Shown piece after piece: positions 15,697-62,155 of a stretch of DNA of 62,155 bases. The first letter of the stretch is position 1. The number at the start of each line of letters is the position of its first letter. A program made the translations under genes and the position numbers. A model generated the notes under the pieces. The model did no database searches. It saw only the letters and a list, made by a program, of their open reading frames with translations, and was not told the DNA's origin. The stretch is from Woeseiaceae bacterium (GTDB lineage Bacteria > Pseudomonadota > Gammaproteobacteria > Steroidobacterales > Woeseiaceae). The stretch spans positions 1 to 62,155 of the forward strand of contig JBPCXZ010000312.1 in the NCBI GenBank assembly GCA_051008055.1, given 5' to 3'.

Positions 15697-15763
15697 AAAC
15701 GCAGCTTAGCTTTAGGCGACAGCTGACGGAAACTTAAAACAGAGTTTGAGCCGGGGGGCTTTC

Positions 15764-18760: not shown

Positions 18761-18787
18761 AAGCGACCAATATGCAGTACCCAAAGA

Positions 18788-18814
18788 CTGCCCCGATCCG
18801 GGGCAGTTTTTTTT
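18788..18814 (+). terminator. Rho-independent terminator
   Basis: Perfect 8-bp GC-rich stem CTGCCCCG / CGGGGCAG with a 3-nt loop, followed by T8. It starts 28 nt after the TBDR stop. Confidence 0.8.
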
Positions 18815-18890
18815 GGTGGGGTCGCAATTGAATCGCGATTGAATCACCCTGAGGCTTGCTTTACCGTGAGGGTTGCAAAGGCGCTTCGAA

Positions 18891-20453: not shown

Positions 20454-20468
20454 ACAAAGGAAAACAAA

Positions 20469-21182: not shown

Positions 21183-21185
21183 ACG

Positions 21186-22193: not shown

Positions 22194-22221
22194 TGAGTGG
22201 CGGGACCATAGGAGTAAGACT

Positions 22222-23712: not shown

Positions 23713-23742
23713 CACGTAAAACGAGTAAACGGGACGCCGAAT

Positions 23743-37926: not shown

Positions 37927-38748
37927 ATGTGCCCAGCAGACCAAAACAATAACGAAGAGCGCGGCTATATCATCCCGATAGGCGGCGCCGAAGAAAAGCT
38001 CAACAATCCCGAGATTCTCGATCGATTCATCGAATTATGTGGTGGCGACGAGGCCAGGATCAGTATTATTCCGACCGCATCCGAACTCGAAGACACGGGT
38101 CGAAATTATGAAAAGCTGTTCCGCAAAATCGGCGTAAAACATGCGCAAGTGTTGCCGTTCGAGACTCGCGAGGACTGCGACAACAGCGAGTACCTTGATT
38201 ACATTGAGAAATCGGACGGCATCTTCCTGACCGGCGGCAACCAGCTGCGACTCTCGACCACTCTTGGCGGTACTGCAGTCGCGCAGCTGATCCGCCGCCG
38301 CAATGCGACCGGCATGCACGTTGCCGGCACGTCGGCTGGCGCGGCGTTCGTCCCGGAACACATGATTGCCGGCGGCTACGAAGGTGCGACGCCTAGCCCG
38401 GATCTGGTCACGATGGCGCCTGGGCTGGGCCTGACCAACAAATTCATTATCGACCAGCATTTTCGTCAGCGAGACCGTCTTGGCCGCCTGCTGACCGCTC
38501 TGGCTTACAATCCGTTCGCTGTGGGCATTGGTCTGGACGAGGATACTGCCGCCTTTATCAGCCCGGGAGACGAGTTGGAAGTCGTCGGAAGTGGTGGTAT
38601 TACGGTGATAGATCCCACCGATCTGAGCTATTCTTCTATGGACCAGGCGCGCCGTGGTGAGCCGGTCAGCTTGATTGGGGTCAAGCTGCACATTCTGGTT
38701 GCTGGCGGCCGCTTCGATATTGCGTCGCGAGCGGCTGCGCCTGAATAG
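37927..38748 (+). CDS. cphB: Cyanophycinase (peptidase S51), intracellular type
   Basis: IIPIGGAEEK, FLTGGNQLRL and the catalytic Ser in AGTSAGAA. No signal peptide. Confidence 0.88.
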   Translation: MCPADQNNNEERGYIIPIGGAEEKLNNPEILDRFIELCGGDEARISIIPTASELEDTGRNYEKLFRKIGVKHAQVLPFETREDCDNSEYLDYIEKSDGIFLTGGNQLRLSTTLGGTAVAQLIRRRNATGMHVAGTSAGAAFVPEHMIAGGYEGATPSPDLVTMAPGLGLTNKFIIDQHFRQRDRLGRLLTALAYNPFAVGIGLDEDTAAFISPGDELEVVGSGGITVIDPTDLSYSSMDQARRGEPVSLIGVKLHILVAGGRFDIASRAAAPE

Positions 38749-38799
38749 AAGAGGCAGCACCAGAGTAAGTACAGAATAAAAAGAAAGGCAGGAACAGAA

Positions 38800-41586: not shown

Positions 41587-43262
41587 TGGAATTTCTGGAC
41601 GCGCGGCGACTGACTGGCCCAAGCCTGCTCGCGGATGTGCCCGGAGCGATTCTCGATGTTGCCTGCGACGCGAAGGAGGCTGAAGCGCTGGTCCCAGTGT
41701 GGACAAAGCATGTTGAACGTATGCTTGAGGATCTTGGCTGGGACGATAGCAACTTAAGCCTGACCTACCTGTCGGCGGGCGTCAGCCTGTTCTTCACGGC
41801 GCCAATCGACGCTTTGTACGCTGCTTCCGAAGTCAACGAATGGGCCTGGGCCGCCAGCGAAGCGGAAATGAACGGCACGCTTGCGCCCGACTACGAAGAG
41901 GCGCTTACTGCCATTCGAGCGGCCATTGCGGAAGAAGCGAATGCAGAGCTGTTGCAGCTGGCAGCCGAAGCGGATGCGAATGACCGTACGTTTCTGTGGG
42001 ATGACGACGAGGCTTCAGTCGGCCTCGGCAAACACTCGAAGACCTGGCCGGTTCGGGAAATACCTGAACTTAGCAAACTGGATTGGTCGCAGTTCGGTGA
42101 CATACCAATCGGACTCGTAACAGGTACGAATGGTAAGACGACGACCGTTCGTCTCGCGACTCACATTATGCGAACTGCAGAACAAAACGTGGGCCTGAGC
42201 TCGACCGACTGGATTGCTGTAAACGACAAGATTCTGGACCGAGGTGACTGGTCCGGACCCGGCGGCGCACGCGCTGTTTTGCGGGAACCGTCAGTTGATG
42301 TTGCCATTCTGGAATCGGCACGCGGTGGCTTGCTGCGTCGTGGTCTGGGCGTTAACGCTGCAGATGTCGCGTTAATCACCAACATCGCTGAAGATCATCT
42401 TGGCGATTTCGGCTCGCAGAATCTCGCAGAGTTAATGGATATCAAATGGATCGTCAGCCGGGCTGTTGTGGGTTGCGGCAAATTGATTCTAAACGCAGAC
42501 GACAAATTGCTCGTCTCGAAGGCGGACAGGTACCCAGGCGACATCATTTGGTTCTCGTTGCATGCAGATAATGAAAGAGTCGAGCAGCACGTCGCTGCGG
42601 GCGGGACTGCTTTCGTACTGGATGAGCCGGACCTGGTGATGCTGGCAGGCGAGTCGCGCGATGTCATTTGCAGTCCATCTGACATAGCCATCACGCTCGA
42701 TGGTGCGGCACGACACAACGTTGCAAATTGCCTGGCGGCCGCTGCGTTAACGATGAGCCTTGGCGCGGACCTGCAGGACGTAAGATCCGGGCTAATGTCG
42801 ATGTCGCAGGACGATAATCCCGGTCGCTGCAATGTCCATGATGTCGATGGCTACAAGGTATTGGTTGACTTTGCGCACAATCCGCATGCGATGCAGGCCT
42901 TGTTCGGCATGGCACAGGCATTGCCCGCCAAGCGTCGTGTGTTGTGCTTTGGTCAGGCCGGGGACCGACCGGACCAGGCGATTCGTGAACTGGCTCGTGA
43001 TGCCTGGGCAATCGGTCTGGACAAAGTCATTGTCTCTGAGCTTGCCGATTACCACCGTGGCCGGGGAGAAGGAGAGGTCTTTGCCATCATCAAGGATGAG
43101 TTGCTTCAGCAGGGAGCCAGTGCTGACCAGGTCGAACACTTCGACGAAGAGACAGAATCATTGGCCGCTGCGATGGAATGGGCCGGTGCCGGCGACCTTG
43201 TGATCATGTTGGCGCTGGGCGGTGCCGCGAAAATTCAGTCGCTGTTGACGCCAGAAACGTAG
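41586..43262 (+). CDS. CphA-like protein lacking the ATP-grasp domain (N-like segment plus Mur-ligase M domain)
   Basis: 558 aa. The GTG start overlaps the cphA TAG stop (TAGTG). P-loop VTGTNGKTTTVRLATHIM. The segment SARGGLLRRGLG parallels VARGGMLRSGLG of cphA. The first roughly 180 aa resemble the CphA N domain (RRLTGPSLLADVPGAILDV versus NVYVGPNVYAHFPVVRHVLDL). No ATP-grasp segment is present. Confidence 0.7.
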   Translation: MEFLDARRLTGPSLLADVPGAILDVACDAKEAEALVPVWTKHVERMLEDLGWDDSNLSLTYLSAGVSLFFTAPIDALYAASEVNEWAWAASEAEMNGTLAPDYEEALTAIRAAIAEEANAELLQLAAEADANDRTFLWDDDEASVGLGKHSKTWPVREIPELSKLDWSQFGDIPIGLVTGTNGKTTTVRLATHIMRTAEQNVGLSSTDWIAVNDKILDRGDWSGPGGARAVLREPSVDVAILESARGGLLRRGLGVNAADVALITNIAEDHLGDFGSQNLAELMDIKWIVSRAVVGCGKLILNADDKLLVSKADRYPGDIIWFSLHADNERVEQHVAAGGTAFVLDEPDLVMLAGESRDVICSPSDIAITLDGAARHNVANCLAAAALTMSLGADLQDVRSGLMSMSQDDNPGRCNVHDVDGYKVLVDFAHNPHAMQALFGMAQALPAKRRVLCFGQAGDRPDQAIRELARDAWAIGLDKVIVSELADYHRGRGEGEVFAIIKDELLQQGASADQVEHFDEETESLAAAMEWAGAGDLVIMLALGGAAKIQSLLTPET

Positions 43263-48915: not shown

Positions 48916-50301
48916 TCAAATCGAGCGCAGATACCACTCGAAATCGAGCGCGCTGACACTGTCGTGAAATTTCTTTTCTTCGGCTCGCCGATTGATCAGG
49001 AATGCTTTGCAAAATCTATCGCCGAGGTATTCCGGCAAAATCTTGCTGCGCGAGAACTTTTGTAGCGACGCGTCCCAGCGATCAGGAATTCGCGTTCTCA
49101 AGTTGATGGTCTGACCTTCTTCAACCATGCGGCCGGGATCGACCTTGTTCTTCAGCCCGTAATGCACACCGGCGACGATTGCCGAGGTCACCAGGTAGGG
49201 ATTCGCGTCGGCGCCGGCGACGCGATGTTCGAATCGCAGGTTCTTCTTGTCGGCCTGCGGAATGCGTACTGACACGACGCGATGATTAACGCCCCAGTTC
49301 GTATCAACCGGTGCGAAATTTTCGGGCAACAAGCGTCGGTACGAATTAGCATTCGGCGAAAAGATGGCAGTTGCTTCCGGCATCGTTTTGAGCAAGCCGC
49401 CTACCGCGTAGCGGAGTCGCGCCGAGAATGGCGGAACGGCAAGATTGTCCTTGTCATGCGAAAAGTAATTCTTACCGTTCTTGTCGACCAGACTCATGTG
49501 AATATGCAGGCCATTGCCTGCATCTTCGGCGAAGGGTTTCGCCATGAAACAGGCGACGAAGCCGTGTCTTAATGCTGCGGCTTTGACGGCGCGCTTCAAC
49601 AGGACTGCATGATCACAGGCCAGCACAGGGTCATCTACATGCATCAGGTTGATTTCAAACTGACCCGCCGCGTACTCGGATATCACCGTGTCAGCAGGAA
49701 TATTTTGTGCGTCGCAATAGTCGTAGACATCGTCCAGAAACGGCTGAACCTCTTGCAGGTCATCAGGATGATAGACCTGTACGCCGGGTTGTGGCCGACC
49801 CAGCCCGGGAACGATCGGCGCCTTCGGCGTCGGCTTGTCCGCTTTGGCATCCAACAGGTAGAACTCCAACTCTGTGGCCATCACCATCTTCAGGCCCATC
49901 TTCTTGAGCGGGGCCATCGATCGTTCGAGGACCGTACGGGAATCAGCAAAGTAGGGCGTACCATCATTCTCATAAATTCTGAACAATGCCTGCGCCATCG
50001 GTCGGTTAGACCAGGGTACCGGAGCGATACTTCCCGCAACGACGGAACTGACCGCATCCGGATCGCCGTCATCGTAGCCAGGCAGGCCTTCGGCCACCTC
50101 GCCCAACACATCCAGCAGGACGGTGCCGCCACAGAAAAAGAATGGCTCAGTGCAGGTTTTCTCAAAGTCCTTGGCACGCACCCGTTTGCCCTTGAGAACG
50201 CCATTGATATCCGGCACCAGCACTTCCATAAACGCAGTGTCGGGAAATTTTTTCAGCAGTCGTCTGAGTTCAGCGCGCCGCGGGTCTGTTTTTTTGGCCA
50301 T
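48916..50301 (-). CDS. Glutamine synthetase family enzyme, gamma-glutamyl-amine (PuuA-like) synthetase
   Basis: 461 aa. GS catalytic-domain motifs: FMAKPF, GNGLHIHMSL, NSYRRL and RFEHRVAGADANPYL. It lacks the adenylylation context of GlnA and lies next to a PuuD-like hydrolase cluster. Confidence 0.7.
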   Translation of the reverse strand: MAKKTDPRRAELRRLLKKFPDTAFMEVLVPDINGVLKGKRVRAKDFEKTCTEPFFFCGGTVLLDVLGEVAEGLPGYDDGDPDAVSSVVAGSIAPVPWSNRPMAQALFRIYENDGTPYFADSRTVLERSMAPLKKMGLKMVMATELEFYLLDAKADKPTPKAPIVPGLGRPQPGVQVYHPDDLQEVQPFLDDVYDYCDAQNIPADTVISEYAAGQFEINLMHVDDPVLACDHAVLLKRAVKAAALRHGFVACFMAKPFAEDAGNGLHIHMSLVDKNGKNYFSHDKDNLAVPPFSARLRYAVGGLLKTMPEATAIFSPNANSYRRLLPENFAPVDTNWGVNHRVVSVRIPQADKKNLRFEHRVAGADANPYLVTSAIVAGVHYGLKNKVDPGRMVEEGQTINLRTRIPDRWDASLQKFSRSKILPEYLGDRFCKAFLINRRAEEKKFHDSVSALDFEWYLRSI

Positions 50302-50392
50302 ATTGCTGCGAGCTTCCCTGATCCTTGGCTTGCCTGCAAGAGTTGATTGATATCATAATATGAACTACTCATTCATAATATGGTGATCGCTC

Positions 50393-51145
50393 ATGGCTAC
50401 TGCAAATCCACCGCAGGGCGCTCAAGCCGCGCTGCGCGCCATTCGGCTTTTGAAGTTATTCACCGCCGCGACTCCGGAATTGAGTCTCACCGAAATTTGC
50501 GAGCACGCCGGCCTCAACAAGACGACGGCGCATAGATTACTGCAAGCATTGTCGAGCGAGGCAATGGTCGAACGCGATGGGACCCACGGCACTTATCGCC
50601 TGGGTGCTGGAATGATGGCTCTGGGCGTGCAGGCATTGTCCAGCAGCGACTTGCGAATACGCGTTCGTCCGATGTTGAAGCGTCTGGCGCGAGACAGCGG
50701 CGAAACAGCAACGCTTGAAGTACCGATCGACAATTCGATGCTGATTCTCGACGAAGTGGCCGGTAGCCATTTTGTTGGTGCGGCCGGCAATGTTGGTACG
50801 CGCTGGCCGCTGCATGCGACGTCGACCGGCAAAGCGCTGGTAGCTTTCGATGAGCAGGTAAGGGCAAGGCTTGCGGATGATCTGCCGTCGCTGACGCCGA
50901 GCACTATCGTTCGCAGGGCTGATCTGGAAAAGCAACTAACGGCTATTCGGCATCGCGGATTCGCCGAATCCGTAGATGAACTGGAGGACGGTTTCTCCGG
51001 TGTCGGTACGGTGATTCGCGGCGGACTGGGCGAGGTCCTGGGCACGTTGTCGATCTGTGGCCCGACGCAGCGCATGGGCGATACGCGGCGCGCAAGATTG
51101 GGCGAAACACTGCGAAATGCGGCCGCGCAGCTGCAGCCCGCCTAG
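50393..51145 (+). CDS. IclR family transcriptional regulator
   Basis: The winged HTH LSLTEICEHAGLNKTTAHRLLQAL is followed by an IclR effector-binding domain. Confidence 0.85.
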   Translation: MATANPPQGAQAALRAIRLLKLFTAATPELSLTEICEHAGLNKTTAHRLLQALSSEAMVERDGTHGTYRLGAGMMALGVQALSSSDLRIRVRPMLKRLARDSGETATLEVPIDNSMLILDEVAGSHFVGAAGNVGTRWPLHATSTGKALVAFDEQVRARLADDLPSLTPSTIVRRADLEKQLTAIRHRGFAESVDELEDGFSGVGTVIRGGLGEVLGTLSICGPTQRMGDTRRARLGETLRNAAAQLQPA

Positions 51146-51261
51146 GGATAAGCTAGGGATTACCGTGATAATATACCGCCAGCCACAGCGTCAGGAAAAA
51201 CAACATTAATACACGCAAGTTTGCTGTTCTGATTCGGGGGATCGCCTGCACAACAATCGCA

Positions 51262-53115
51262 ATGACCACTGCTTTGTGGTCGGCGACGGTGTACGCGATC
51301 GATTTAGAGGTACCGCAGATCGGTCTGACGGAAGTACCGATTGAAATCGTCGTGACCGGGGTGCCGGAAGGCGAACTCGTCACCGTCAATGTCGCTGGCG
51401 AAGACTTCTGGATAAACGCCGACGCCGATGGACGCGCCGTCGTGCCGGAAACAAGTGTTGCAGAAAGTGGTTCGATTCAGATCGTTGCGACGTATGAGGA
51501 GTACACAGCGGACGCGAGTCTGCGTGTACTACCCGGATGGATTTCGCTGATGCCCGCGTTTCTGGCAATCATCACCGCGTTGCTGTTGCGCAATGTTCTG
51601 CCCGCGTTGCTTCTTGGTCTGTGGTTAGGTGCGACCGCATTGCAAGGTTTCTCACTCGGCGGCGCTTTGCAGGGACTGCTGAACGTGTTCTCAGTATTCA
51701 TCGTCAACGCGCTGGCGAATCCGGATCATGCCGCGATTATCGCGTTCAGCATGATGATTGGCGGCATGGTCGGCATCATTACGCGCAACGGCGGCATGAC
51801 CAGCGTTGTGCGAATGGTCGTCAGTCGCGCGAAGACCGCAATCGGGGGGCAGATCTCGATTTGGCTGATGGGCCTGATGATCTTCTTTGACGATTACGCT
51901 AATACGATGCTGGTCGGCAACACCGCCCGACCGATTACGGATCAACTGAAGATATCCAGGGAAAAACTCGCCTACATCGTGGATTCGACGGCCGCGCCGG
52001 TTGTGTGCCTGGCCTTTGTCACGACCTGGATCGGCTATGAAGTCAGCCTGATCGACCAGGCACTGCAGGGAATTGACGGACTTGCTACAGAGGCCGCTTA
52101 TTCGGTTTTCCTGAGCTCGATCCCGTTTAGTTTTTACCCGATTCTGGCCGTGTTCTTTGTCATCGTTGTTGCTTCCTCAGGCCGCGACATGGGTCCGATG
52201 TACAAGGCAGAAGTTCGGGCCAGGCAGGGCGAGGTCGCGCCGCAGGCAGTAGAGGATTTGCCAGCGATGAATGGCGACACGCTGGACGCCAAAGATAATA
52301 TTCCGTTCCGTGCGATGAACGCGTTTATCCCAATCATTGTCATGATTATCGGACTGATTCTGAGTTTGTACATCACCGGCACGTCGAACCTTGGGCCGGG
52401 CGAGCATTCGATTCGCGACATCATTGGTGAGTCCAATGCGTACCTCGCGATGCTCTGGTCATCATTTGCCGGAGCGCTGACGGCCGCAGGCTTGTCTGTC
52501 GGGCAACGAATCCTGAATTCGCATGAAGTGGTCGATGCCTGGTACGGCGGCGCGCGTGCAACCCTGTTCGGCATGATCACTTTGGTACTCGCGTGGTCGA
52601 TGTCAGATATTTCAACTTCACTCAACGCGCAGGGTTACTTGATTTCAGTCCTGGGTGATTCGTTGCCGGCCGCGCTGGTGCCTGCGATCGTATTCGTCCT
52701 TGCGGCGTTGACGGCATTTGCGACGGGCACGAGTTGGGGCACGATGGGCATATTGATGCCTCTGACTATCCCGCTTGCCTGGGCCGTCATGACCGTCAAC
52801 GGTATTGCGGATCCGTCTGGCATGCATATTCTTTATTCTGCCGTGGCCTGTGTACTCGCCGGTGCGGTTTGGGGCGATCATTGTTCGCCCATCTCGGACA
52901 CGACAGTCCTGTCGTCAATCGCAAGTGGCTGCGACCATATCGAACACGTCCGAACACAGATGCCGTACGCGTTGATGGTTGGTAGTGTGGCCATCGCGAT
53001 CGGTACGATTCCTGCCGGGTATGGTTTGTCGCCCTGGATTTCGATTCTCGTTGGCGGTGCCTTGTTGTTCGCAACCTTGCGCTACTTCGGTCGCAAGGCT
53101 GACGACGCGGCATGA
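51262..53115 (+). CDS. NhaC-family membrane transporter with an N-terminal non-membrane domain of about 95 aa
   Basis: The polytopic C-terminal roughly 520 aa has Na+/H+ antiporter NhaC-family features (FFDDYANTMLVG, SPISDTTVLSS). The N-terminal segment is hydrophilic and looks beta-rich. Confidence 0.65.
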   Translation: MTTALWSATVYAIDLEVPQIGLTEVPIEIVVTGVPEGELVTVNVAGEDFWINADADGRAVVPETSVAESGSIQIVATYEEYTADASLRVLPGWISLMPAFLAIITALLLRNVLPALLLGLWLGATALQGFSLGGALQGLLNVFSVFIVNALANPDHAAIIAFSMMIGGMVGIITRNGGMTSVVRMVVSRAKTAIGGQISIWLMGLMIFFDDYANTMLVGNTARPITDQLKISREKLAYIVDSTAAPVVCLAFVTTWIGYEVSLIDQALQGIDGLATEAAYSVFLSSIPFSFYPILAVFFVIVVASSGRDMGPMYKAEVRARQGEVAPQAVEDLPAMNGDTLDAKDNIPFRAMNAFIPIIVMIIGLILSLYITGTSNLGPGEHSIRDIIGESNAYLAMLWSSFAGALTAAGLSVGQRILNSHEVVDAWYGGARATLFGMITLVLAWSMSDISTSLNAQGYLISVLGDSLPAALVPAIVFVLAALTAFATGTSWGTMGILMPLTIPLAWAVMTVNGIADPSGMHILYSAVACVLAGAVWGDHCSPISDTTVLSSIASGCDHIEHVRTQMPYALMVGSVAIAIGTIPAGYGLSPWISILVGGALLFATLRYFGRKADDAA

Positions 53116-53864
53116 GCCACAAGCCGGTGATTGGCGTGCCTGCCGATCGGCGCATGGTCGATCCGCATCCGTTCCACATGGCTGGCGAAAAATACGTGCA
53201 GGCGATCGTCGATGGCTCTGACGGCTTACCGTTCATCATTCCGGCACTGGGCGATCCACTGGACGTAGATGACATTATTGCCCACGTTGACGGCATCCTG
53301 CTGACCGGTAGTCCGTCGAATATCGAGCCGTACCATTACGAGGGCCAGCCAAGTGAACCCGGTACCTGGCACGATCCGCATCGCGATGCGCTGACCTTGC
53401 CATTGGCGAATCGTGCGCTGCAAAAAGGCGTGCCGTTACTTGCCGTTTGCCGCGGCCACCAGGAACTCAATGTCGTTCTCGGTGGCACCTTGCACCAAAA
53501 AGTGCATGAAGTGCCCGGCTATGGGATGCACAAGGAAAATCCGGAAGATCCGCTCGACGTGCAATATGGGCCGTCGCACAACATCAACCTGGTCGAAGGT
53601 GGGTTGCTGCACGGTCTTGCAGGCACGGACAAGGTGATGGTGAATTCGCTGCACGCACAGGGTGTCGCGAAATTGGCAGACGGGGTAAGTATCGAAGCAC
53701 TTGCGGACGACGGTTTGGTTGAAGCTTTTGTCGTGGACAGTGCACCGGGCTTCACATTATCCGTCCAGTGGCACCCGGAATGGCAAGTGCGCTTAGATGA
53801 ATTTTCGACCGCAATTTTCAGGACTTTCGGCGACGCCTGTCGCGATTACGCAAAGCGAAAGTAG
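53112..53864 (+). CDS. puuD: Gamma-glutamyl-gamma-aminobutyrate hydrolase family (peptidase C26, class I amidotransferase-like)
   Basis: The LAVCRGHQELNV nucleophile-Cys motif and the WHPEW His region match PuuD-type hydrolases. ATGA overlap with the upstream gene. Confidence 0.75.
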   Translation: MSHKPVIGVPADRRMVDPHPFHMAGEKYVQAIVDGSDGLPFIIPALGDPLDVDDIIAHVDGILLTGSPSNIEPYHYEGQPSEPGTWHDPHRDALTLPLANRALQKGVPLLAVCRGHQELNVVLGGTLHQKVHEVPGYGMHKENPEDPLDVQYGPSHNINLVEGGLLHGLAGTDKVMVNSLHAQGVAKLADGVSIEALADDGLVEAFVVDSAPGFTLSVQWHPEWQVRLDEFSTAIFRTFGDACRDYAKRK

Positions 53865-53965
53865 GGTGCTCTTAAGCACGGATCGTGTTTCAACATATGG
53901 TTCCGGGGCGACTTACTGGCCTGCGGTTAGCTATTATTAGGAGTTCAAGCACTTGGAGGTGAGCC

Positions 53966-55333
53966 ATGGCAGCTCTCGAGAAACGTTCCGGATCGGATTG
54001 GCAGGAGCTGGATAAAGACCACTATCTGCACCCGTTTACCGACCACAAAGAACTACACGAAAAGAAATCTCGCATTATCACCAAAGCCGATGGGTCGTAT
54101 ATCTACGACTCTGAGGGCAATAAGATCCTTGACGGCATGTCGGGTCTCTGGTGTGTGAATGCCGGCTACGGACGCGATTCGCTGGTTGCAGCAGCTGCTG
54201 AGCAGATGCGCGAGCTGCCTTACTACAACAGTTTTTTTCAGTGCGCTCACCCGCCGTCAATTGAGTTGGCGAAGAAACTGCAGGAAGTAACGCCAGCTCA
54301 TATGAATCGCGTGTTTTTCACTGGCTCGGGTTCGGAGTCTAACGACACGATCGTACGTATGGTCCGACGTTACTGGGACCTGATGGGTCAGCCGGAGAGG
54401 CATACGATCATCAGCCGACAGAACGCCTACCACGGTTCTACCGTGGCCGCGGCCAGTCTGGGCGGCATGAAGCCCATGCACAGCCAGGGTGGTTTGCCGA
54501 TTCCAGGCATTGTGCACGTTGATCAACCCTATTGGTTTGGCAGCGATCACAGTCTGTCACCTGACGAGTTCGGTCTCGCGGCGGCGCGTTCAATTGAAGT
54601 AAAAATCAACGAGCTAGGTGCGGATAAAGTTGCCGCATTCATTGGTGAGCCGATTCAGGGTGCTGGCGGCGTTATCATTCCGCCGGATTCATATTGGCCT
54701 GAAGTGCAAAGGATTTGCGACGAATACGGCATCCTCCTGATTTCTGATGAAGTCATCACCGGGTTCGGCAGGCTTGGCGAATGGTTTGGCGCAGACTACT
54801 TCGGTACACGACCGGACTTTATGCCCTTTGCCAAAGGCGTGACGTCGGGTTACCTGCCTTTGGGTGGTGTAATGATCAGCGATCGGGTTGCAAAGACCCT
54901 GATCGACAAGGGCGGAGAGTTTTATCACGGCTATACCTATTCCGGTCACCCGGCAGCCTGCGCGGTTGCGATCGAGAATATCAATATCCTGCAAAGGGAA
55001 GGCCTGGTCGAACGGGTTAAAAATGACATTGGACCGTACCTGCAGGCCGGCTGGCACAAACTCGGCGAACATCCGCTGGTTGGTGAAACGCGCATGGTTG
55101 GTCTGATGGGCGCTTTGGAAATTGTCAAAGACAAGGACTCTCTTGAGCGCTTTGATGAGGACGATGGCGTCGGCACCATTTGCCGCGATTTCCTCGTCGA
55201 AAATGGACTTGTAATGCGAGCCGTAGGAGACTCAATCGTTACCGCGCCGCCGTTCATTTTGACTCATGCCGAAGCGGATGAGCTGCTGGAGAAAGCCTGG
55301 CGTGCTCTCGACCTGACACAGCAGGCAATTTGA
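53966..55333 (+). CDS. Class III PLP-dependent aminotransferase (amine:pyruvate/2-oxoglutarate type, SpuC-like)
   Basis: GLWCVNAGYGR, ISDEVITGFGRLG and the PLP-binding Lys in the FAKG context (PDFMPFAKGVTSGY). 455 aa. Confidence 0.8.
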   Translation: MAALEKRSGSDWQELDKDHYLHPFTDHKELHEKKSRIITKADGSYIYDSEGNKILDGMSGLWCVNAGYGRDSLVAAAAEQMRELPYYNSFFQCAHPPSIELAKKLQEVTPAHMNRVFFTGSGSESNDTIVRMVRRYWDLMGQPERHTIISRQNAYHGSTVAAASLGGMKPMHSQGGLPIPGIVHVDQPYWFGSDHSLSPDEFGLAAARSIEVKINELGADKVAAFIGEPIQGAGGVIIPPDSYWPEVQRICDEYGILLISDEVITGFGRLGEWFGADYFGTRPDFMPFAKGVTSGYLPLGGVMISDRVAKTLIDKGGEFYHGYTYSGHPAACAVAIENINILQREGLVERVKNDIGPYLQAGWHKLGEHPLVGETRMVGLMGALEIVKDKDSLERFDEDDGVGTICRDFLVENGLVMRAVGDSIVTAPPFILTHAEADELLEKAWRALDLTQQAI

Positions 55334-56283
55334 TGGCTACGCGCAAAGAAAGCAACGACAACGCCATAACGAGAGAGAGCCTCTATGGCACGACGCCGGA
55401 ACCGACGTATTCGGGAATCCTGTCATTCATGCGTCGCAAGTACACGAAAGACCTGAGTGGTGCCGATGTTGCCGTGCTGGGAGTACCGTTCGACACGGCA
55501 ACGACCAATCGTGCCGGCACCCGGCTCGGGCCTCGCGCTATTCGGGCAGCTTCGTCGATCATCGCCTGGGAAAAAATGTACGGCATGGAATTTGATCCGT
55601 TTGACAAACTCGCGGTGGTTGATTGGGGAGATTGCTACTTCGATCACGGCCGACCGCAGGGTGTACCGGATCAGATCGAGCAGTGTGCATATGACATCAT
55701 TAACCAGGGCCCGGGCCTGCTGACTTTGGGCGGCGATCATTTTATTTCCTATCCGCTGATCAAAGCCCATGTCAGAAAACACGGCGGACCTGTGTCGATC
55801 CTGCATTTCGATGCTCATAGCGACACCTGGGCTGATGACGATGGTCGCATTGATCACGGCACCATGTTCTATTTCGCGGCGAAGGAGGGCATCGTAAATC
55901 CGGCGACTTCGGTGCAGATCGGCCTGCGCACGACGAATCCCGACACGCTGGGATTCAATGTGCTTGACGCGCCATGGGTGCATGCGAACGGGATCGAGGC
56001 CACCATTGAAAAGGCGCGAAAAATCGTCGGCGATACGTCCGTTTACCTGACCTTTGATATTGATTGTCTCGATCCGAGTTACGCGCCTGGCACCGGGACG
56101 CCCGTCTGTGGCGGCCTGACGTCACACCAGGCGATTCAGATCCTGCGCGGTATGCAGGGGATCAATATTATTGGCATGGATATGGTGGAAGTCGCGCCGG
56201 CGTACGATGTCGGTGAAATAACGGCCCTGGCCGCGTCGCAGCTCGCGATGGAAATGCTTTACCTGTACGCAAACAAACCATAA
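55333..56283 (+). CDS. Ureohydrolase (agmatinase / guanidino-acid hydrolase family)
   Basis: Mn-binding motifs GGDHFISYP, HFDAHSDT and FDIDCLDP. ATG in a TGATG overlap with the aminotransferase stop. Confidence 0.8.
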   Translation: MATRKESNDNAITRESLYGTTPEPTYSGILSFMRRKYTKDLSGADVAVLGVPFDTATTNRAGTRLGPRAIRAASSIIAWEKMYGMEFDPFDKLAVVDWGDCYFDHGRPQGVPDQIEQCAYDIINQGPGLLTLGGDHFISYPLIKAHVRKHGGPVSILHFDAHSDTWADDDGRIDHGTMFYFAAKEGIVNPATSVQIGLRTTNPDTLGFNVLDAPWVHANGIEATIEKARKIVGDTSVYLTFDIDCLDPSYAPGTGTPVCGGLTSHQAIQILRGMQGINIIGMDMVEVAPAYDVGEITALAASQLAMEMLYLYANKP

Positions 56284-56303: not shown

Positions 56304-57116
56304 ATGAATTCAGCAAAGCTCCGGCGCTTCTTCGAGCAACGTCGTGTTCGCGGCGAACCATTGGTGCTGGTGCAGGTAACGGCAACCGAAGGTTCAACGT
56401 ACAGCAAGGCAAACGACCTGATGCTGATCGATCAGCAGGGGGTCGCTTGCGGGATGTTATCTGGGGGTTGTCTGGAGAGCGATCTGGTGGCACGAGCCCA
56501 GGTAGTTCTAGAGTCGGGAAAGTCGCAATCGGTGACCTACAAACTGGCGAGCGATGACGACGATGTCTGGGGCCTCGGAATCGGCTGCGATGGCTCGATG
56601 ACGATTGGCTTGCAGCTTATCGACAAGGACAGCAACTACTCGCCGCTGGAAATACCGCAGCCTGTGGAGTTGTTGGTCTTAGGTGGCGGCCTTGACGCGG
56701 TTCCACTGACGCGTCTCGCTGCTGAGATAGGTTGGCATTGCACTGTCGTCGATCATCGGCCCGCTTATATCGAACGCGGCGATTTTCCTGACGACTGCGA
56801 CAGACATTGCATCGCTGCGGATAGTCTGGCCGAGCACCTGAATATTGAGAGTTTCGATGGTGCAATCGTAATGAGCCATCATCTTGAGAGCGATCGGGAA
56901 TACTTGCGACAGATTGCGAGTGCTGATCTTGACTATGCTGGCTTACTTGGCCCGCCGGCGCGAAAGGATCGGCTGTTATCTGAACTTGGCGACGCCGGAC
57001 AGAACTTGCGCGAACGACTGCACGGTCCGGCCGGCTTGGGATTGGGAGGCCGTGGACCGGAAGTAATCGCGCTGTCGATCATTGCTCAGATTCAACAGGA
57101 ACTGGCGGTGGACTAG
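56304..57116 (+). CDS. XdhC/CoxI family accessory protein
   Basis: The N-terminal XdhC_CoxI pattern (LVLVQVTATEGSTYSKANDLMLI...GMLSGGCLE) is followed by a Rossmann-like domain (LLVLGGGLDAVPL). Confidence 0.75.
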   Translation: MNSAKLRRFFEQRRVRGEPLVLVQVTATEGSTYSKANDLMLIDQQGVACGMLSGGCLESDLVARAQVVLESGKSQSVTYKLASDDDDVWGLGIGCDGSMTIGLQLIDKDSNYSPLEIPQPVELLVLGGGLDAVPLTRLAAEIGWHCTVVDHRPAYIERGDFPDDCDRHCIAADSLAEHLNIESFDGAIVMSHHLESDREYLRQIASADLDYAGLLGPPARKDRLLSELGDAGQNLRERLHGPAGLGLGGRGPEVIALSIIAQIQQELAVD

Positions 57117-57778
57117 CCGCTACCGGCAATGTTGCCCGGCAAAAATACGCGAACGATCATGTCGGCCAATTCGTTGCGCTTTGCGTCGTCGTCAAGATTA
57201 AATCCGCTACTGCCGCGAACCTCGAGGCCAAGCGCTAGCAGGCCGCCCGCGGAGACGCGAATCATGTTGTACAACAAGGCCGGGTTGCCTGGCGGCGAGA
57301 TGCCTAGTTCTTGCAGCTTGGCGAGTTGACCAGCAACCATTTCATAGAGCGGTTTAAGATGTGACTCGACCAGCCAATCGAGCCGGTCACTGGGGTAGCT
57401 CGATTCGAGCAGAATAATCTTGTGCAGAGCTGGTTGCTCGTAAGCGTATTGCACATAGGTTCGAATAAATGCTTCCGCACGGGCTTTCGGATCAATCTCC
57501 GGAACCTCGGCCATCGCCTTAACCAGCGAAATATTAAACTCGCGAAAAATTCGATCGGTTGCCGCACGCCACAACTGATCTTTGTTCTTGAAGTGATACG
57601 TGATCAAGGGATGATGCACGCCGGCACGGTCGGCGATGTCGCGCGTTGATGTACCTTTGAAACCGTTCTCTGAAAACGCGAGAATTGCCGCATCCAGAAG
57701 TTTCTGCTGCGTGATTACACTTCGTTGCTGTTGTTTTCGCGCCGGTCGTTGCTCCGTCGCTGCCTGCTCCGCATCCAC
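57113..57778 (-). CDS. TetR family transcriptional regulator
   Basis: HTH FSENGFKGTSTRDIADRAGVHHPLITYHFKNK. Its stop shares the tetranucleotide CTAG with the convergent XdhC stop. Confidence 0.85.
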   Translation of the reverse strand: MDAEQAATEQRPARKQQQRSVITQQKLLDAAILAFSENGFKGTSTRDIADRAGVHHPLITYHFKNKDQLWRAATDRIFREFNISLVKAMAEVPEIDPKARAEAFIRTYVQYAYEQPALHKIILLESSYPSDRLDWLVESHLKPLYEMVAGQLAKLQELGISPPGNPALLYNMIRVSAGGLLALGLEVRGSSGFNLDDDAKRNELADMIVRVFLPGNIAGSG

Positions 57779-57871
57779 TGGTTTTGTTCCCCGCTCCCTT
57801 TTCGACTGAGTCTAGAGTAGCCGGAACGTCTTAATTTGTCCAGATTGGAAGGTTTTCGACGAAAATCGCGG

Positions 57872-60571
57872 TTACTCTACCGCAAACATCATTCGGACCG
57901 CTGCGCGTTTCGGTATCGCTGCGCCGTTTTCAACGACGGGCTCAAATTCCCACGCTTCAACGGCCTTGACCGCGGCATTGACGAACGTAATACCCGGCTC
58001 GGAGTTGACGACCGAAACCTGTCCTACAGAGCCGTCAATGTCCACTGTAAACTGAAGTTCAACCCAACCACTGACGGCGCGGCGTTGTGCCGCGCGCGGG
58101 TATTTCGGTGCGACATACTTAGTGCGGTTAAGCGAGCTTGCCGCCACCGGTGCTTCCCGGCGCAGTGCAGATTGCTGTTGCTCGACCACTGCCACCTGGC
58201 TACCAGTATTTTGACTGATTGATTCGGCCGGCGCGGCAACTGCGGGCGGCGGCAGGTCAGCGGGAATCTCGGTCTTTTCATCGGCCAGATTATCCGCAGG
58301 CGTTTCTTCAATTGCGTAGGTCTGCGCTTGCTCGGCGGCTGCCCTTTGGGCTGTTGCCTGTTCGGCGGCCAGCGCTTCGGCGGCGCGTCGTTCTGCGTCG
58401 CGTTGACGCTGCGCCCTGTCGCTTCTTGCTGCATTCAAGGCGGCGCTGGCACTCGCGACCTCGTTGCTGCCCGGGTCAAGACGTCGCGCATCTGCGAGCA
58501 GCCGTTCTGCAGCGTCGAATCGACCGGCATCGATCTCAGTGCGTGCATTGAGGACCAGTTTGCTGGCGACGACGATCAGTCCTTGGGCAGCAGCCGTGTT
58601 TTCAGGATCATTGCTAAGAGCCAGCTCATAATAATAACGGGCGTTGTCGTTGGATGGTGTAGTCAGATCACCCGCATCCAGCCGTGCACTAGCTTTGATC
58701 AGCACGTCGTCGACTCGTTGTTCGCTTAGAGCGGCGTTGAGCTCGTCCGAGGCCAACTCAATATCGGTTGTGTCTGCCAACCCCAGAGCTCTTGCGCTAT
58801 TCAGCGCAATCGCAGCATCCTCAAATCGGCTTTCCCGAATTGCGGCGCGCGAGTCGTCAAGGTATTCGCGTAGTTGCATCTGTGCGAGTTGTGCATTCAG
58901 GAATGGCAAACGAGCATTGCCGGGGTCAATCTCTGTGGCTCGCTGCAAGGCCGTCGCGGCAACTGCGGTGTCCCTGGTAAGTAGCGAAGACTCCGCCAGA
59001 CTCAGTGCTTCCTCAACGGTCCCGGTCGCCATGGCAACAGCCCTGTCCTGGGCAGACGCCTCTTGTGTTAAGTCTTGTTCTGTAAGCGTCGTTCTTGTGC
59101 GTTGTGCCGGGTCTGTTGGAGCAGGAGTTTCGGATCCGCCGAATAGCCACCAACCCAACGCTACAACAACGACCAGCGCAGCTGCGCCGATACCCAGGAT
59201 CTTAGGGTTCATGAACATCGAGCCGCCAGAGTCGTCGCTGTCCAGCATCGGATTCGCGATCGGTTGGGCAGTCGGTTTGGCGGTCGGTTCCGCGACATCG
59301 CCGTCATCGCGTGTTGTCACAGATGAAATCTTCTCACCGACTGTTCGAATGATGCCGGTCATCGTCTCTGTAAAGCTGCTGTCGTCGCCGCTGAATGCGT
59401 CGCCAAGCCGGTCGCCATCGAAAGATGCTGTCTCCACGGGTACCGGACGAGGTTCCACAACGATACTGGGCACCGACTGTGAATTCGACGGGTCTGACTT
59501 TGGCGTCGCTTGCGCAGTCAACTTCGATGCAGGTTTAGGTGCAGGTTTTGGCGTACTTGGAGCAGCCGGTCTTGCGGCACGTGCTGGAACGGTTTTCGCT
59601 GCTTTGGCGGATACCTTGGCCGATGAGCCCGTGGTTTTGAACGCCGCGTCGGGCGCTTCAAGATGATGCTTCGTAGACGCTTCGATTGCGAGGCGTGCGC
59701 GGCCGGGTGATACCGGCTTCAGCAGGAATCGGTACACCTTGCCACGATTAATCAGGTCCATCAGCATCTCGCCGTCGTCGCGGCGGCCGGCGATGATGGC
59801 CACGAGGCGTGGCGACTTGGTGCGTAGATGCTGAGTGAGTTTCTCGACATTCTCGCCAACCATCGCTGCATCAACAACGGCGACGCCAACGGCTTGATCG
59901 GCAACCGCTTCGTCGGCTTGCGCAAGCGTACTGGCAGCGACAATGTTGTGCATGCCTCGTGCTGACTCGCGCACTGTAGTCAGGAATTCGTCGTCCTTGG
60001 TCAAAACCAGTACGTCAACGGCGCGCGAACCGACGTTGGCTTCTTCATACTTCTCCGGATCGAGGGCCGGAACCTGACCGGTAACATCGGTGATTATCGA
60101 AGAGCCGTTTTCGGACGTTTCCATCACAATATGTTCGGCTGAGGTATCAACATCTGCAGTGGTGTCATTTGCTGACTCGGTCAACTGCATCAAACGCGCC
60201 TGACGAGTCGCGTCGTCAATCAGGGAGCGCAGTGAGTCCGGCGTTACGCCGCCCCGGACAACCTGAAATACTTCATTCGCACCGACCAATGCTTCGACAC
60301 CTTCGCCATCATTCCCAGCGAGCAGAATGCCGAGTGTTTCGGGCGAACGTCGTTTCGCTTCCCGCAAAGCATCAAGGCCACTCATGCCCGGCAATTCCTG
60401 GGCAGTGACCAAAACGTCAATCGCAGTCTGTCCGAGCGTGTTTAATGCTTCGCTGCCACTGGTCGCACAGTGCACCGTATAGCGGTCGGCAAACCCTGTA
60501 CGCAACTTGTCCAGGGTGTTTCGTTCACTATGCAGTAACAGTATCTGCGTTTTGAATTGTTCCAGCGCCAC
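57872..60571 (-). CDS. Multidomain protein: two receiver-like domains, low-complexity linker, one TM helix, TPR-like repeats and a C-terminal TonB domain
   Basis: REC-like 1 has ILLLHSE...IDVLVTAQELPGMSG, so the acidic pocket and the phospho-acceptor position are substituted. REC-like 2 has VLVLTKDDE...VAVVDAAM...LLKPVSPG. The TM helix is ILGIGAAALVVVVALGWWLF. The C-terminus YPRAAQRRAVSGWVELQFTVDIDGSVGQVSVV...AVEAWEFEP matches TonB_C. Confidence 0.7.
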   Translation of the reverse strand: MALEQFKTQILLLHSERNTLDKLRTGFADRYTVHCATSGSEALNTLGQTAIDVLVTAQELPGMSGLDALREAKRRSPETLGILLAGNDGEGVEALVGANEVFQVVRGGVTPDSLRSLIDDATRQARLMQLTESANDTTADVDTSAEHIVMETSENGSSIITDVTGQVPALDPEKYEEANVGSRAVDVLVLTKDDEFLTTVRESARGMHNIVAASTLAQADEAVADQAVGVAVVDAAMVGENVEKLTQHLRTKSPRLVAIIAGRRDDGEMLMDLINRGKVYRFLLKPVSPGRARLAIEASTKHHLEAPDAAFKTTGSSAKVSAKAAKTVPARAARPAAPSTPKPAPKPASKLTAQATPKSDPSNSQSVPSIVVEPRPVPVETASFDGDRLGDAFSGDDSSFTETMTGIIRTVGEKISSVTTRDDGDVAEPTAKPTAQPIANPMLDSDDSGGSMFMNPKILGIGAAALVVVVALGWWLFGGSETPAPTDPAQRTRTTLTEQDLTQEASAQDRAVAMATGTVEEALSLAESSLLTRDTAVAATALQRATEIDPGNARLPFLNAQLAQMQLREYLDDSRAAIRESRFEDAAIALNSARALGLADTTDIELASDELNAALSEQRVDDVLIKASARLDAGDLTTPSNDNARYYYELALSNDPENTAAAQGLIVVASKLVLNARTEIDAGRFDAAERLLADARRLDPGSNEVASASAALNAARSDRAQRQRDAERRAAEALAAEQATAQRAAAEQAQTYAIEETPADNLADEKTEIPADLPPPAVAAPAESISQNTGSQVAVVEQQQSALRREAPVAASSLNRTKYVAPKYPRAAQRRAVSGWVELQFTVDIDGSVGQVSVVNSEPGITFVNAAVKAVEAWEFEPVVENGAAIPKRAAVRMMFAVE

Positions 60572-60730
60572 TTAAGATTCCTCCGAATCCTTATGTTGAA
60601 TCGCACGCATGATCCTTGCGTCGAGGGAGTATAGCCCTGGGTATTAGGTCAAGTGTCGCTTTACACCGACAGAGTTACGAATCTGTGACACGCCGCACAT
60701 TCGAAGTGCAGGGCCCGTCACAATTGGGCT

Positions 60731-62155
60731 CTAGGTGCGGTTCTGAACTTCTTCGGAGAGGATATTGAGCGCTTCGGAAAGTGGTAAAAACTGCTGCTTT
60801 TTGGATCCGAGTCGGCGCATTGCAACCGTATTTTCGTCGACTTCACGCTGCCCGATAGCGAGCAAAACGGGAACCTTCGCGACGCTATGTTCACGTACCT
60901 TGTAATTGATTTTTTCGTTACGTAGATCGGTTTCTGCACGAAATCCTGCGGCACGGAATTGTTCCGCAACCGATTTGGCGTAGTCGTCCGCGTCAGAGGT
61001 AATCGTTAGTACCTTGATTTGGGTCGGTGCCAGCCACAACGGCAGATTGCCTGCATGGTGCTCGACAAGGATGCCGATGAAGCGCTCCAGCGAACCGAAA
61101 ATGGCCCTGTGAAGCATGACCGGAAGATGTTTTTCGCCGTCCTCACCGATATACGTGGCGCCGAGACGGCCGGGCATATTGAGGTCAACCTGCAAGGTAC
61201 CGCATTGCCAGTCACGACCGATGGCGTCGCGCAAGACGAATTCCAGTTTAGGTCCGTAAAAGGCTCCTTCACCGGGATTGTGTGTGTAATCGAGGCCGGA
61301 AACTTCGAGCGCCTTAAGCAGCGCAGCCTCCGCCTGATCCCAGACCGCATCTTCGCCAACGCGAACTTCCGGCCGATCGGCAAACTTTATGCGCACATCG
61401 TCAAAGCCGAACGCTGCGTAAATTTCCAGCAGTTGACGGCAAACCGCAATCGACTCATCCGTAATCTGCTCGGGTGTAACAAAGATATGAGCATCATCCT
61501 GGGTGAATGCGCGGACGCGCATCATGCCGTGCAATGCGCCGGATGGTTCGTAGCGGTGACACTTGCCAAACTCAGCGAGTCGATAGGGCAGGTCACGATA
61601 ACTGGTGATGCCTTGCTTGAAGACCTGCACATGCCCGGGGCAATTCATCGGTTTGATGGCGTACTTGCGACCGTCGACAGTCTCAGTCGTGTACATATTG
61701 TCGCCGAAGGCGTCCCAGTGTCCGGAAGCTTGCCAGAGAGACTGGTCCATGAGTTCGGGTGTGTTGATCTCCCGATAGCCAGCTATTTTCTGTTGCTCAC
61801 GCATATAGGCGATCAGGCTCTGAAACAGGCTCCAGCCCTTCTCGTGCCAGAAAACCGCACCGGGAGCTTCTTCCTGGAAATGAAACAGGTCCATAATCTT
61901 GCCGAGGCGCCGGTGGTCCCGTTTCTCGGCTTCTTCCAGCATCAGCAGGTATTTGCGCAACTGCTTGTCATTGGCCCACGCAGTGCCGTAGACGCGCTGT
62001 AGCATCTCGTTATTCGAGTCGCCGCGCCAATAGGCGCCAGACACTCGTGTCAGCTTGAATGCTTTGCCAAGTTTGCCGGTTGATGGCAGGTGCGGTCCGC
62101 GACACAGGTCGATGAATTCGCCTTGGCGGTACAGAGTGATTGGTTCTGCGGACGG
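60731..62155 (-). CDS. thrS: Threonyl-tRNA synthetase, 5'-truncated by the window edge
   Basis: The reading frame stays open to position 62155 ([22 protein letters not shown]...[21 protein letters not shown]...RDHRRLGK). It aligns with the catalytic and anticodon-binding domains of E. coli ThrS. The 'M' at 62044 in the ORF track is an internal GTG Val. Confidence 0.92.

Follow-up and report, generated by a model that had tools for sequence, protein, structure and literature searches.

The window analysed here, i.e., the whole stretch of 62,155 nucleotides of contig JBPCXZ010000312.1 (assembly GCA_051008055.1) from a Woeseiaceae bacterium, carries close to its end a gene, referred to below as X, whose predicted product combines two receiver (REC) folds, a transmembrane (TM) helix, TPR-like repeats and a TonB C-terminal domain (TonB_C). 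This two-receiver/TM/TPR-like/TonB_C architecture had been proposed from the sequence letters alone (hereafter, the original prediction), and Pfam, NCBIfam, hydropathy analysis and AlphaFold2 bear it out. X is a single intact open reading frame (ORF) of 899 codons at positions 57872-60571 of the minus strand and has a GTG start. Its parts are as follows (pLDDT, predicted local distance difference test):

57872-60571, minus strand: the whole gene, 899 amino acids plus stop, encoding REC1, linker, REC2, tether, TM helix, TPR-like domain, spacer and TonB_C (Pfam, NCBIfam, alignment)
60579-60584, minus strand: Shine-Dalgarno sequence GGAGGA, 7 nt 5′ of the GTG, conserved
60188-60550, minus strand: REC1 pseudo-receiver, residues 8-128 (Pfam; HupR/3jte alignment; β-α pattern of the AlphaFold2 model)
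60023-60187, minus strand: inter-receiver linker, residues 129-183 (conservation; pLDDT <50)
59657-60022, minus strand: REC2, residues 184-305 (3kcn/2rjn/HupR alignment; hhalign; residue counts)
59207-59656, minus strand: cytoplasmic Pro/Ala/Ser/Lys-rich tether, residues 306-455 (alignment)
59342-59416, minus strand: tether motif LGDAFxGDDSSFTETMTGI, residues 386-410 (invariant or near-invariant L389, F393, D397, E402, T403 and T405)
59138-59206, minus strand: single TM helix KILGIGAAALVVVVALGWWLFGG, residues 456-478 (hydropathy; TM segments of 80 members)
58424-59059, minus strand: periplasmic TPR-like helical-repeat domain, residues ~505-716 (AlphaFold2 with pLDDT >90; Foldseek; weak Pfam matches)
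58139-58423, minus strand: Ala/Glu/Gln/Arg-rich helix followed by a disordered Pro/Ala/Gln linker, residues 717-811 (AlphaFold2; homologue lengths)
57875-58138, minus strand: TonB C-terminal domain, residues 812-899, PKYPRAAQRR...GWV (Pfam, NCBIfam, PDB search, Foldseek)

Response_reg of Pfam matches two stretches of the protein (E 1.7e-13), and a hydropathy scan of all 899 residues reveals one hydrophobic segment only, at residues ~456-478. Because the receivers are N-terminal and TonB_C is C-terminal to this sole TM segment, the topology is N-in; the gene product is a bitopic inner-membrane protein with its N-terminus in the cytoplasm.

One could suspect an annotation or assembly artefact, in which a response regulator gene and a TonB-family gene have been joined through a frameshift or a missed start. 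No support for this was found; the long disordered middle of the protein could in principle conceal a junction. Full-length homologues with the same uninterrupted architecture recur in 156 species genomes and, with few exceptions, among the 120 best-matching clusters of proteins listed, and the start codon has a conserved Shine-Dalgarno sequence and a promoter. The N-termini of homologues line up with the window protein from residue 1, and the alignment then extends over both RECs and the TM helix right through TonB_C. Since the architecture recurs in this way, we rejected the artefact, whose probability we consider negligible.

Domain organisation of the REC-TonB_C protein

The C-terminal domain, which had been read as a bona fide TonB_C, is a canonical TonB C-terminal domain. 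Pfam TonB_C (PF03544) matches residues 821-896 with an E-value of 2.1e-15 and 57.4 bits against a cut-off of 24.6, and NCBIfam tonB_Cterm (TIGR01352) scores 46.9 bits against a cut-off of 27.1. Foldseek matched the domain to TonB1 of P. aeruginosa (6i97_D; TM-score 0.91, root-mean-square deviation 1.0 Å, 31% identity) and also to E. coli TonB, and a PDB sequence profile search agreed with these assignments (6i97_D, E 1.5e-14). In sequence and in fold, the closest match is P. aeruginosa TonB1 complexed with FoxA.

The membrane anchor tells a different story. The TM helix contains no histidine, and the helices of 80 family members have no conserved histidine, Ser-His-Leu-Ser (SHLS) face or other conserved polar position. 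A histidine occurs in 6 of the 80 predicted TM windows, is not conserved among them, and in two of these six the hydropathy maximum lies outside the TM helix. The family helix can be described as a poorly conserved Ala/Leu/Val/Gly anchor with a tryptophan near the periplasmic end. The check for an SHLS-type His motif, suggested along with the original prediction, therefore came out negative. For contrast, the expected S...H pattern is present in the TolA encoded at a locus (L164) that carries a distant homologue of the family.

The missing motif affects one part of the trans-envelope device that had been envisaged. That the protein is unlike an ordinary TonB holds, whereas phosphorylation-controlled TonB energy transduction is weakened because the TM helix has no His/SHLS. 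Such transduction would be the task of a gated alternative TonB, which would rely on an ExbB-ExbD or MotAB-like stator encoded elsewhere, would be switched by phosphorylation of the receivers and would energise a subset of TonB-dependent transporters. A canonical TonB_C whose nearest match is a TonB-box-binding TonB, a periplasmic arm long enough to reach the outer membrane, the Asp and Lys retained in REC2 (see below) and a genome that encodes TonB-dependent receptors, one of them in the window, all speak for such a protein. The anchor, with neither a conserved His/SHLS face nor much conservation of any kind, speaks against it, and so does the arm, since the Pro-rich segment is cytoplasmic and the periplasmic spacer is α-helical/TPR-like rather than a polyproline rod. 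The PKPAPKPASK stretch, which had been compared with the proline-rich rod of TonB, does precede the TM helix as described; being N-terminal to the helix it is cytoplasmic, i.e., on the wrong side of the membrane for the spacer of TonB.

For the periplasmic part, the AlphaFold2 model of residues 495-899 (mean pLDDT 87; here and below the input was an alignment of 73 sequences) consists of nine TPR-like helices, a 52-residue helix, about 40 disordered residues and TonB_C. The TPR-like repeats of the original prediction are thus recovered by AlphaFold2 (pLDDT >90), by Foldseek, which found BamD and generic TPR proteins nearest to the helical part, and weakly by Pfam, where TPR_19, TPR_2 and TPR_14 match below their cut-offs. 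The domain includes the unit L..P..DNARYYYELALSNDP.N..A.QGL. The first AGQIFNPPGSNAIELY repeat unit (~50 residues), present in most members, is missing from the window protein and from its closest relatives, P0004, P0005 and P0007 (window positions 58990-59090, residues ~495-525, compared with alignment columns ~615-670). The periplasmic spacer that follows the repeats varies from 58 to 218 amino acids among homologues.

The model of the cytoplasmic half (residues 1-312, mean pLDDT 63) shows two β-α receiver folds with residues 130-183 disordered between them. The best Foldseek match of the whole cytoplasmic model is PleD, with tandem receivers; the single receivers HupR and 3jte were also retrieved. 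When REC1 is aligned to HupR and 3jte, H14-S15 takes the place of the Asp-Asp pair, A57 that of the phospho-Asp, A85 that of the Thr and G107 that of the Lys. In CheY, the corresponding residues are D12/D13, D57, Thr/Ser87 and Lys109. These substituted positions are invariant or nearly so (at least 90%) in the family alignments. The absence of the acidic pocket (HS) and of the phospho-acceptor, seen already in the original prediction, is confirmed by this alignment, and REC1 is a fully degenerate receiver from which every signature residue has been lost.

REC2 is different. Its alignment to 3kcn, 2rjn and HupR places D234 at the phospho-Asp position and K285-P286 at the Lys-Pro pair, in line with the Asp and KP motif reported before. 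Among 80 sequences from two families, D234 and P286 are each present in 80/80, D193 in 77/80, A261 in 76/80 and K285 in 74/80. The acidic pair is reduced to T/S-x-D193 in the loop after strand 1, and A261 occupies the Thr position, two points that the original prediction had not mentioned. Judged from these counts, three of the five catalytic-site residues are kept under strong constraint. An RxxD sequence of REC2 (R263-D266), which resembles a cyclic di-GMP I-site, was considered and dropped, as it is not conserved in the Steroidobacteraceae orthologues described below.

The 55-residue linker between the receivers is almost invariant, yet it is predicted to be disordered (pLDDT <50). Its near-invariant motif reads ESANDTxA...EHIVMETSENGSxII (also ESANDT...EHIVMETSENGS), and the EHVVMET motif is present too in the distant double-REC homologue P0225. 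The tether that leads from REC2 to the membrane ranges from 110 to 195 amino acids among homologues. The conserved motifs of linker and tether look like possible docking motifs for partner proteins.

Distribution and gene neighbourhoods of the family

At E <= 1e-5, a word-indexed protein search with the window protein retrieved 978 clusters. The 120 best ones listed share, with few exceptions, the REC + TonB_C architecture, at 50-83% identity. Their sources call them "TonB family protein"; JGI uses the name "serine/threonine-protein kinase". A genome scan (one genome per species) yielded 156 loci, the best 80 of which are labelled almost without exception Woeseiaceae or unclassified Gammaproteobacteria/Proteobacteria, with one short contig assigned to another genus. 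The window DNA itself matches cave and marine-sediment metagenomes.

An exhaustive profile search extended the family to 653 cluster representatives at E <= 1e-30. Among the matches are proteins of 590-710 amino acids that have one receiver only, then one TM helix, the repeats of the family and TonB_C; one of them is annotated "energy transducer TonB [Steroidobacteraceae]". A second genome scan, made with a query alignment of 5 closer sequences, found 172 loci; in the best 80 of these, family labels, where present, read Steroidobacteraceae almost throughout (one reads Nevskiaceae), and the remaining loci are from metagenome-assembled genomes of unclassified Gammaproteobacteria/Proteobacteria. 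By hhalign, REC2 matches the single REC of the Steroidobacteraceae proteins with E 4.9e-42 and REC1 matches it with only E 1.2e-7. The single REC of Steroidobacteraceae is therefore the orthologue of REC2. The REC-TM-TPR-TonB_C core is thus an order-level family of Steroidobacterales, with at least 156 species in Woeseiaceae and at least 172 in its sister family Steroidobacteraceae, and REC1 with its linker is an addition in the Woeseiaceae form. A distant double-receiver form exists in P0225. The window protein displays the signature of the family, namely a REC with T/S-x-D, Asp, A-G and YRFL(L/H)KP, one TM helix, L..P..(D)NA..YY repeats and TonB_C.

Gene context was taken from homologous loci, about 140 orthologous loci with long flanks having been clustered or read. 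In the window, X is flanked by two genes of the same strand:

60731-62155, minus strand: thrS, the 5′ neighbour, truncated by the window end
57113-57778, minus strand: gene of a TetR-family regulator, the 3′ neighbour

The same-strand order thrS, X, tetR is found in 73/81 Woeseiaceae loci. No ExbB, ExbD, TolQ, TolR or MotA gene is present among the approximately 50 window ORFs compared with Pfam, phmmer searches with TolQ and TolR gave no match in any of the six-frame ORFs of the window, and no exbB or exbD adjoins the gene in the ~140 loci. Hence, the earlier remark that neither ExbB nor ExbD is encoded nearby applies to the window and to the orthologous loci alike. The Pfam scan of the window ORFs also showed no histidine kinase, no sigma/anti-sigma pair (FecR-type, extracytoplasmic function (ECF) sigma) and no protein kinase, and the orthologous loci examined have no conserved histidine kinase gene next to X. 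The sole TonB-dependent receptor of the window (15746-18760) is 39 kb away from X and is never linked to it; the supposed contact of TonB_C with TonB boxes of glycan receptors gains no support here.

A stator-like gene pair was found once. The single-REC homologue P0239 (L247:4139-10009) has a MotA_ExbB gene and a MotB_plug/OmpA gene directly on its 5′ side; on its 3′ side come a 90-amino-acid ORF, an opposite-strand ORF of 104 amino acids and a gene with AAA_22 and FHA domains. The stator-like pair speaks for a gated TonB. However, no motAB-like pair lies beside a homologue in any other of the 247 loci searched, so that the adjacency is a single case, and no ExbBD genes adjoin the gene in the loci examined. 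Taken together with the properties of the TM helix, these observations make a gated alternative TonB improbable.

Neighbourhoods in Steroidobacteraceae are of another kind. Neither thrS nor tetR was found beside the orthologues there when looked for. Instead, a gene encoding a REC + Pkinase protein is located directly 3′ of X on the same strand in 29/59 long loci; in 12 loci the two genes share 4 nt at the X stop codon, and in most others they are 3-11 nt apart. The receiver of this kinase has Ala at the phospho-Asp position and so belongs to the pseudoRECs. By this spacing, X is operon-coupled and translationally coupled to a pseudoREC-Ser/Thr kinase (REC-STK) in Steroidobacteraceae. We rejected an origin of REC1 from the receiver of the neighbouring kinase: hhalign gave E 3e-3 for this pair as compared with 1.2e-7 for the family's own REC, and pairwise BLAST for the REC1/kinase-receiver relation was only marginal. 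At one locus (L109:7871-11359), a 1162-amino-acid ORF fuses the TonB_C protein and the REC-kinase in frame; since the resulting topology would make no sense, this fusion is probably due to a lost stop codon or an assembly error.

The periplasmic repeat is linked to kinases in a second way. The profile search retrieved proteins of 1500-1800 amino acids (P0242, P0251, P0253 and P0265, with the source names "PpkA" and "protein kinase", one from Rhodocyclaceae) in which 8 to 13 stretches match, with E-values of 1e-65 to 1e-75. These proteins have an N-terminal protein kinase domain, one TM segment at ~335-380 and then many repeats. The periplasmic repeat thus serves elsewhere as the ectodomain of receptor kinases, and the JGI name "serine/threonine-protein kinase" of TonB_C members is explained by the repeat that they have in common with such kinases. 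An inward relay that does without a sigma/anti-sigma pair, as originally proposed, gains indirect support from the kinase coupling in Steroidobacteraceae and from this shared repeat.

Upstream of X, a T2SSB (GspB) gene and an ExeA-like gene with AAA_22 and PG_binding_1 domains occur in ~25/59 Steroidobacteraceae loci each. The recurrent order is dinB, exeA, gspB, X and REC-STK on one strand, with a major facilitator superfamily (MFS) gene on the opposite one (L084-L163, e.g., L123:4070-11362). Altogether, an ExeA-like AAA_22 gene is found within a few kb of X in ~75 loci, mostly of Steroidobacteraceae. The exeA and gspB neighbours point to secretin/peptidoglycan biology at least as much as to contact with TonB-dependent receptors.

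This context raises the possibility that X encodes a structural assembly or tether factor, acting, e.g., with ExeA-GspB, its TonB_C and TPR domain binding the N0 domain of a secretin, some other outer-membrane protein or peptidoglycan, while the RECs do nothing but localise or oligomerise it. The full degeneracy of REC1, the variable Ala/Glu-rich helical spacer, which resembles domain II of TolA, the recurrent same-strand exeA, gspB and X genes and the AAA_22-FHA gene near P0239 all speak for this reading. Furthermore, the inner-membrane protein ExeB, which contacts the outer-membrane secretin, has long been described as TonB-like, and TonB-dependent receptors have a signalling domain to which the N0 domain of the secretin is similar (PMC4098917). 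However, exeA and gspB are absent from the window and from the surroundings of the Woeseiaceae copies, and in several Steroidobacteraceae loci opposite-strand genes part gspB from X. A passive tether would also not be expected to have its REC2 Asp and Lys strictly conserved or to be translationally coupled to a kinase. We therefore regard a mere tether as unlikely, if not strongly so.

Other neighbours vary. At L164:7857-12697, and likewise at L165, the P0225 gene begins within the stop codon of a RelA/SpoT gene, at its final base; thrS and relA/spoT both carry a TGS domain and relate to translation or the stringent response, a link that may be coincidental. The neighbours of P0221, P0228 and P0257 are unrelated.

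Elsewhere in the window, a glutamine synthetase-like gene and genes for IclR, an Na+/H+ antiporter, Peptidase_C26, a class-III aminotransferase and an arginase-family protein (48916-56283) form a putrescine- or arginine-type catabolic set that is syntenic on the same side in most Woeseiaceae. At 15746-24450, the TonB-dependent receptor gene is accompanied by genes for tryptophan halogenase, SapC, Cupin_8, a second tryptophan halogenase and PhyH, and this cluster is flanked by genes of GH17-like, CBM9 and GH43 proteins, of a LacI-type regulator and of an MFS sugar transporter, a setting that points to a region for glycan utilisation. A 1151-amino-acid ORF between the GH17-like and CBM9-like genes (10960-14415, minus strand) has no Pfam match at E <= 1e-5. 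At 37927-43262, a cyanophycinase gene (Peptidase_S51) is followed by the genes of cyanophycin synthetase and of a second Mur-ligase-type paralogue.

The upstream region of X in Woeseiaceae

The 159-nt spacer between thrS and X (60572-60730; ~9830-10000 in loci L001-L081) is conserved in Woeseiaceae although the proteins are only ~50% identical. The elements recognised in it, and one at the other end of the gene, are the following:

60718-60721: further invariant GTGA, 22 nt upstream of the CRP-type site
60684-60699, minus strand: CRP-type site TGTGCGGCGTGTCACA, TGTG-N7-TCACA, with TGTG and TCACA invariant in 47/47 aligned spacers
60628-60633, minus strand: -10-like hexamer TATACT, invariant at five positions and at least 90% conserved at the sixth (47 sequences)
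60591-60601, minus strand: 5′ untranslated region motif ATTCAACATAA (ATTCrACATAA), nearly invariant in 47 species, not palindromic
57866-57885, minus strand: terminator-like hairpin followed by TTTT, overlapping the stop codon (found by consensus scan only)

The exact TGTG-N7-TCACA pattern occurs once in the window. It is present 5′ of X in 59/67 Woeseiaceae loci, the background in flanking DNA being 0.0013 per 260 nt, and in 0/73 Steroidobacteraceae loci. No σ70 match turned up 5′ of X in a simple promoter scan, nor was a clear -35 element recognised; the -10 assignment is from conservation alone. If transcription is assumed to start 7 nt after the -10-like hexamer, the CRP-type site would be centred near -71, a classical activating position. 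Expression of X in Woeseiaceae is thus probably controlled by a CRP-family regulator, in which case its synthesis would follow the carbon or energy status of the cell.

The possibility that the spacer is an RNA element was considered and set aside: there is no Rfam match at E <= 1, and RNAalifold gave 6 pairs, 4 of which never vary, with a covariation term of -0.18. With no Rfam match and essentially no covariation, the spacer motifs are probably protein-binding DNA sites. The 5′ untranslated region motif could be an operator for the neighbouring TetR or a site of translational control.

Possible function and likeness to known systems

We tentatively propose, with a confidence that stays slightly short of even, that X encodes a non-energised envelope-spanning docking or signalling protein, whose TonB_C binds an outer-membrane partner and whose receivers talk to partners in the cytoplasm. 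TonB_C is held at the end of the periplasmic arm and would dock by β-strand addition onto the outer-membrane partner, which may be the TonB box of a TonB-dependent transporter or the related N0/STN-type domain of a secretin. The TPR-like domain would bind a periplasmic ligand or protein, and occupancy or clustering of the arm would be relayed to the receiver module. The latter may act by contacting other proteins, and phosphorylation of D234 could modulate these contacts. The relay partner in Steroidobacteraceae would most likely be the pseudoREC-Ser/Thr kinase of the same operon; in Woeseiaceae, where the kinase gene is not adjacent, the REC1-linker module may take the role of the partner.

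Several points weigh against this proposal. The membrane is crossed by one helix only, flanked on either side by long disordered tethers, and how a signal could be passed on through it, unless by clustering, is hard to see. REC2 lacks the Thr/Ser and one acidic residue and therefore may not be phosphorylated at all, and confidence in the model of the cytoplasmic half is moderate (pLDDT 63). REC-STK was looked for beside the Woeseiaceae copies and within the window and was not found, and the same holds for ExeA, GspB, AAA-FHA and MotAB; among the best 80 of at least 595 matches in a genome scan for REC-STK, none is in a record labelled Woeseiaceae. Since the neighbours differ between lineages, no single partner can be read from the context. 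Finally, literature searches revealed no characterised protein with this architecture and no experiment on any member.

A narrower version of the proposal is TonB-box-dependent trans-envelope signalling, which would be a form of cell-surface signalling not recognised before. In it, the unenergised TonB_C would read the ligand-induced exposure of a TonB box (or a related strand) on outer-membrane proteins, without an ECF sigma/anti-sigma pair. Its occupancy would be communicated through the inner membrane to the receivers, and these would control the pseudoREC-Ser/Thr kinase in Steroidobacteraceae or, in Woeseiaceae, an intramolecular REC1-REC2 switch. In this specific form, we consider it improbable. 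Our estimates leave a remainder for possibilities beyond the docking/signalling protein, the gated TonB and the tether.

TonB_C is usually read as the mark of an energy transducer for outer-membrane uptake, and databases name the present protein accordingly. Here, a true TonB_C is joined to signalling receivers and to an anchor that cannot engage ExbBD in the established manner, and this combination is conserved across an order of abundant sediment and soil bacteria. If TonB_C indeed docks or senses, the family would represent a new route linking outer-membrane events to cytoplasmic signalling in Gram-negative bacteria, and would call for caution in counting every TonB_C protein as a TonB when uptake capacity is estimated from metagenomes. 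If it is a tether only, the product of X would still be an envelope protein that defines the family Woeseiaceae, and its promoter is well defined and probably under CRP control. While the function is hypothetical, the combination of REC with TonB_C and the link to a kinase are not what a specialist would expect.

Comparison with known systems sets the family apart from each of them. The window protein resembles TonB (E. coli TonB, P. aeruginosa TonB1) in C-terminal sequence and fold, in the YP motif, in the N-in bitopic topology and in the long periplasmic arm. However, its cytoplasmic part has 455 amino acids and two receiver folds in place of a short tail, and its TM helix lacks the Ser-His-Leu-Ser face with His20 through which TonB is coupled to ExbB/ExbD. 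The arm is TPR-like/α-helical whereas TonB has a Pro-rich rod, the Pro/Lys-rich stretch being cytoplasmic here, and neither the window protein nor the orthologues examined ever adjoin exbBD. The protein is not a classical TonB, as it lacks two of the defining features that could be tested.

TolA has an inner-membrane anchor, a long Ala/Glu-rich helical periplasmic spacer and a small C-terminal domain of the TonB/TolA fold class. The anchor, a variable-length Ala/Glu-rich helical spacer and a small C-terminal domain are thus features in common. Unlike the window protein, TolA has an S...H TM motif and TolA_III, works with TolQR and has no cytoplasmic domain; the window protein has TonB_C instead, is not matched by phmmer with the TolA sequence and has no adjacent tolQR. 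Myxococcus GltJ and GltG (AgmX/PglI), which function in gliding, are inner-membrane proteins with a TonB_C-like periplasmic end, GltJ having cytoplasmic regulatory domains as well. The corresponding C-terminal family NF033768 of NCBIfam matches the window protein far below its cut-off (E 2.7e-4, 21 bits as compared with 40), the cytoplasmic domains differ and there are no AglRQS-type motor genes nearby, so the analogy is one of logic only. ExeB/GspB shares the description as TonB-like and, in many Steroidobacteraceae, the place, X following directly after exeA-gspB. Still, X is a separate gene with no T2SSB domain (PF16537) and with a true TonB_C and REC, and it is unlinked to exeAB in Woeseiaceae. 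By these sequence comparisons, the protein is not a member of the TolA, GspB or AgmX/PglI families.

The signalling half has its own parallels. Like PleD, the protein has a pair of CheY-like folds in tandem, of which one looks competent while the other is degenerate; the order is reversed, with the degenerate receiver in front, a conserved disordered linker of 55 residues separates the two, and the output is a membrane anchor rather than GGDEF. The Ser/Thr kinases with TPR-like ectodomains (P0242 and others) share the periplasmic repeat and the order of cytoplasmic signalling domain, TM segment and repeats, but they have a kinase in place of REC, many more repeats and no TonB_C. With FecA-FecR-FecI, the likeness is in the concept of an envelope-spanning relay that starts at a TonB-dependent receptor; the window has no FecR-type anti-sigma or ECF sigma factor, and the relay protein would here be one with TonB_C and REC. 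The protein and its relatives, which databases call TonB, are best filed as an unnamed family of their own within the TonB_C-domain proteins.

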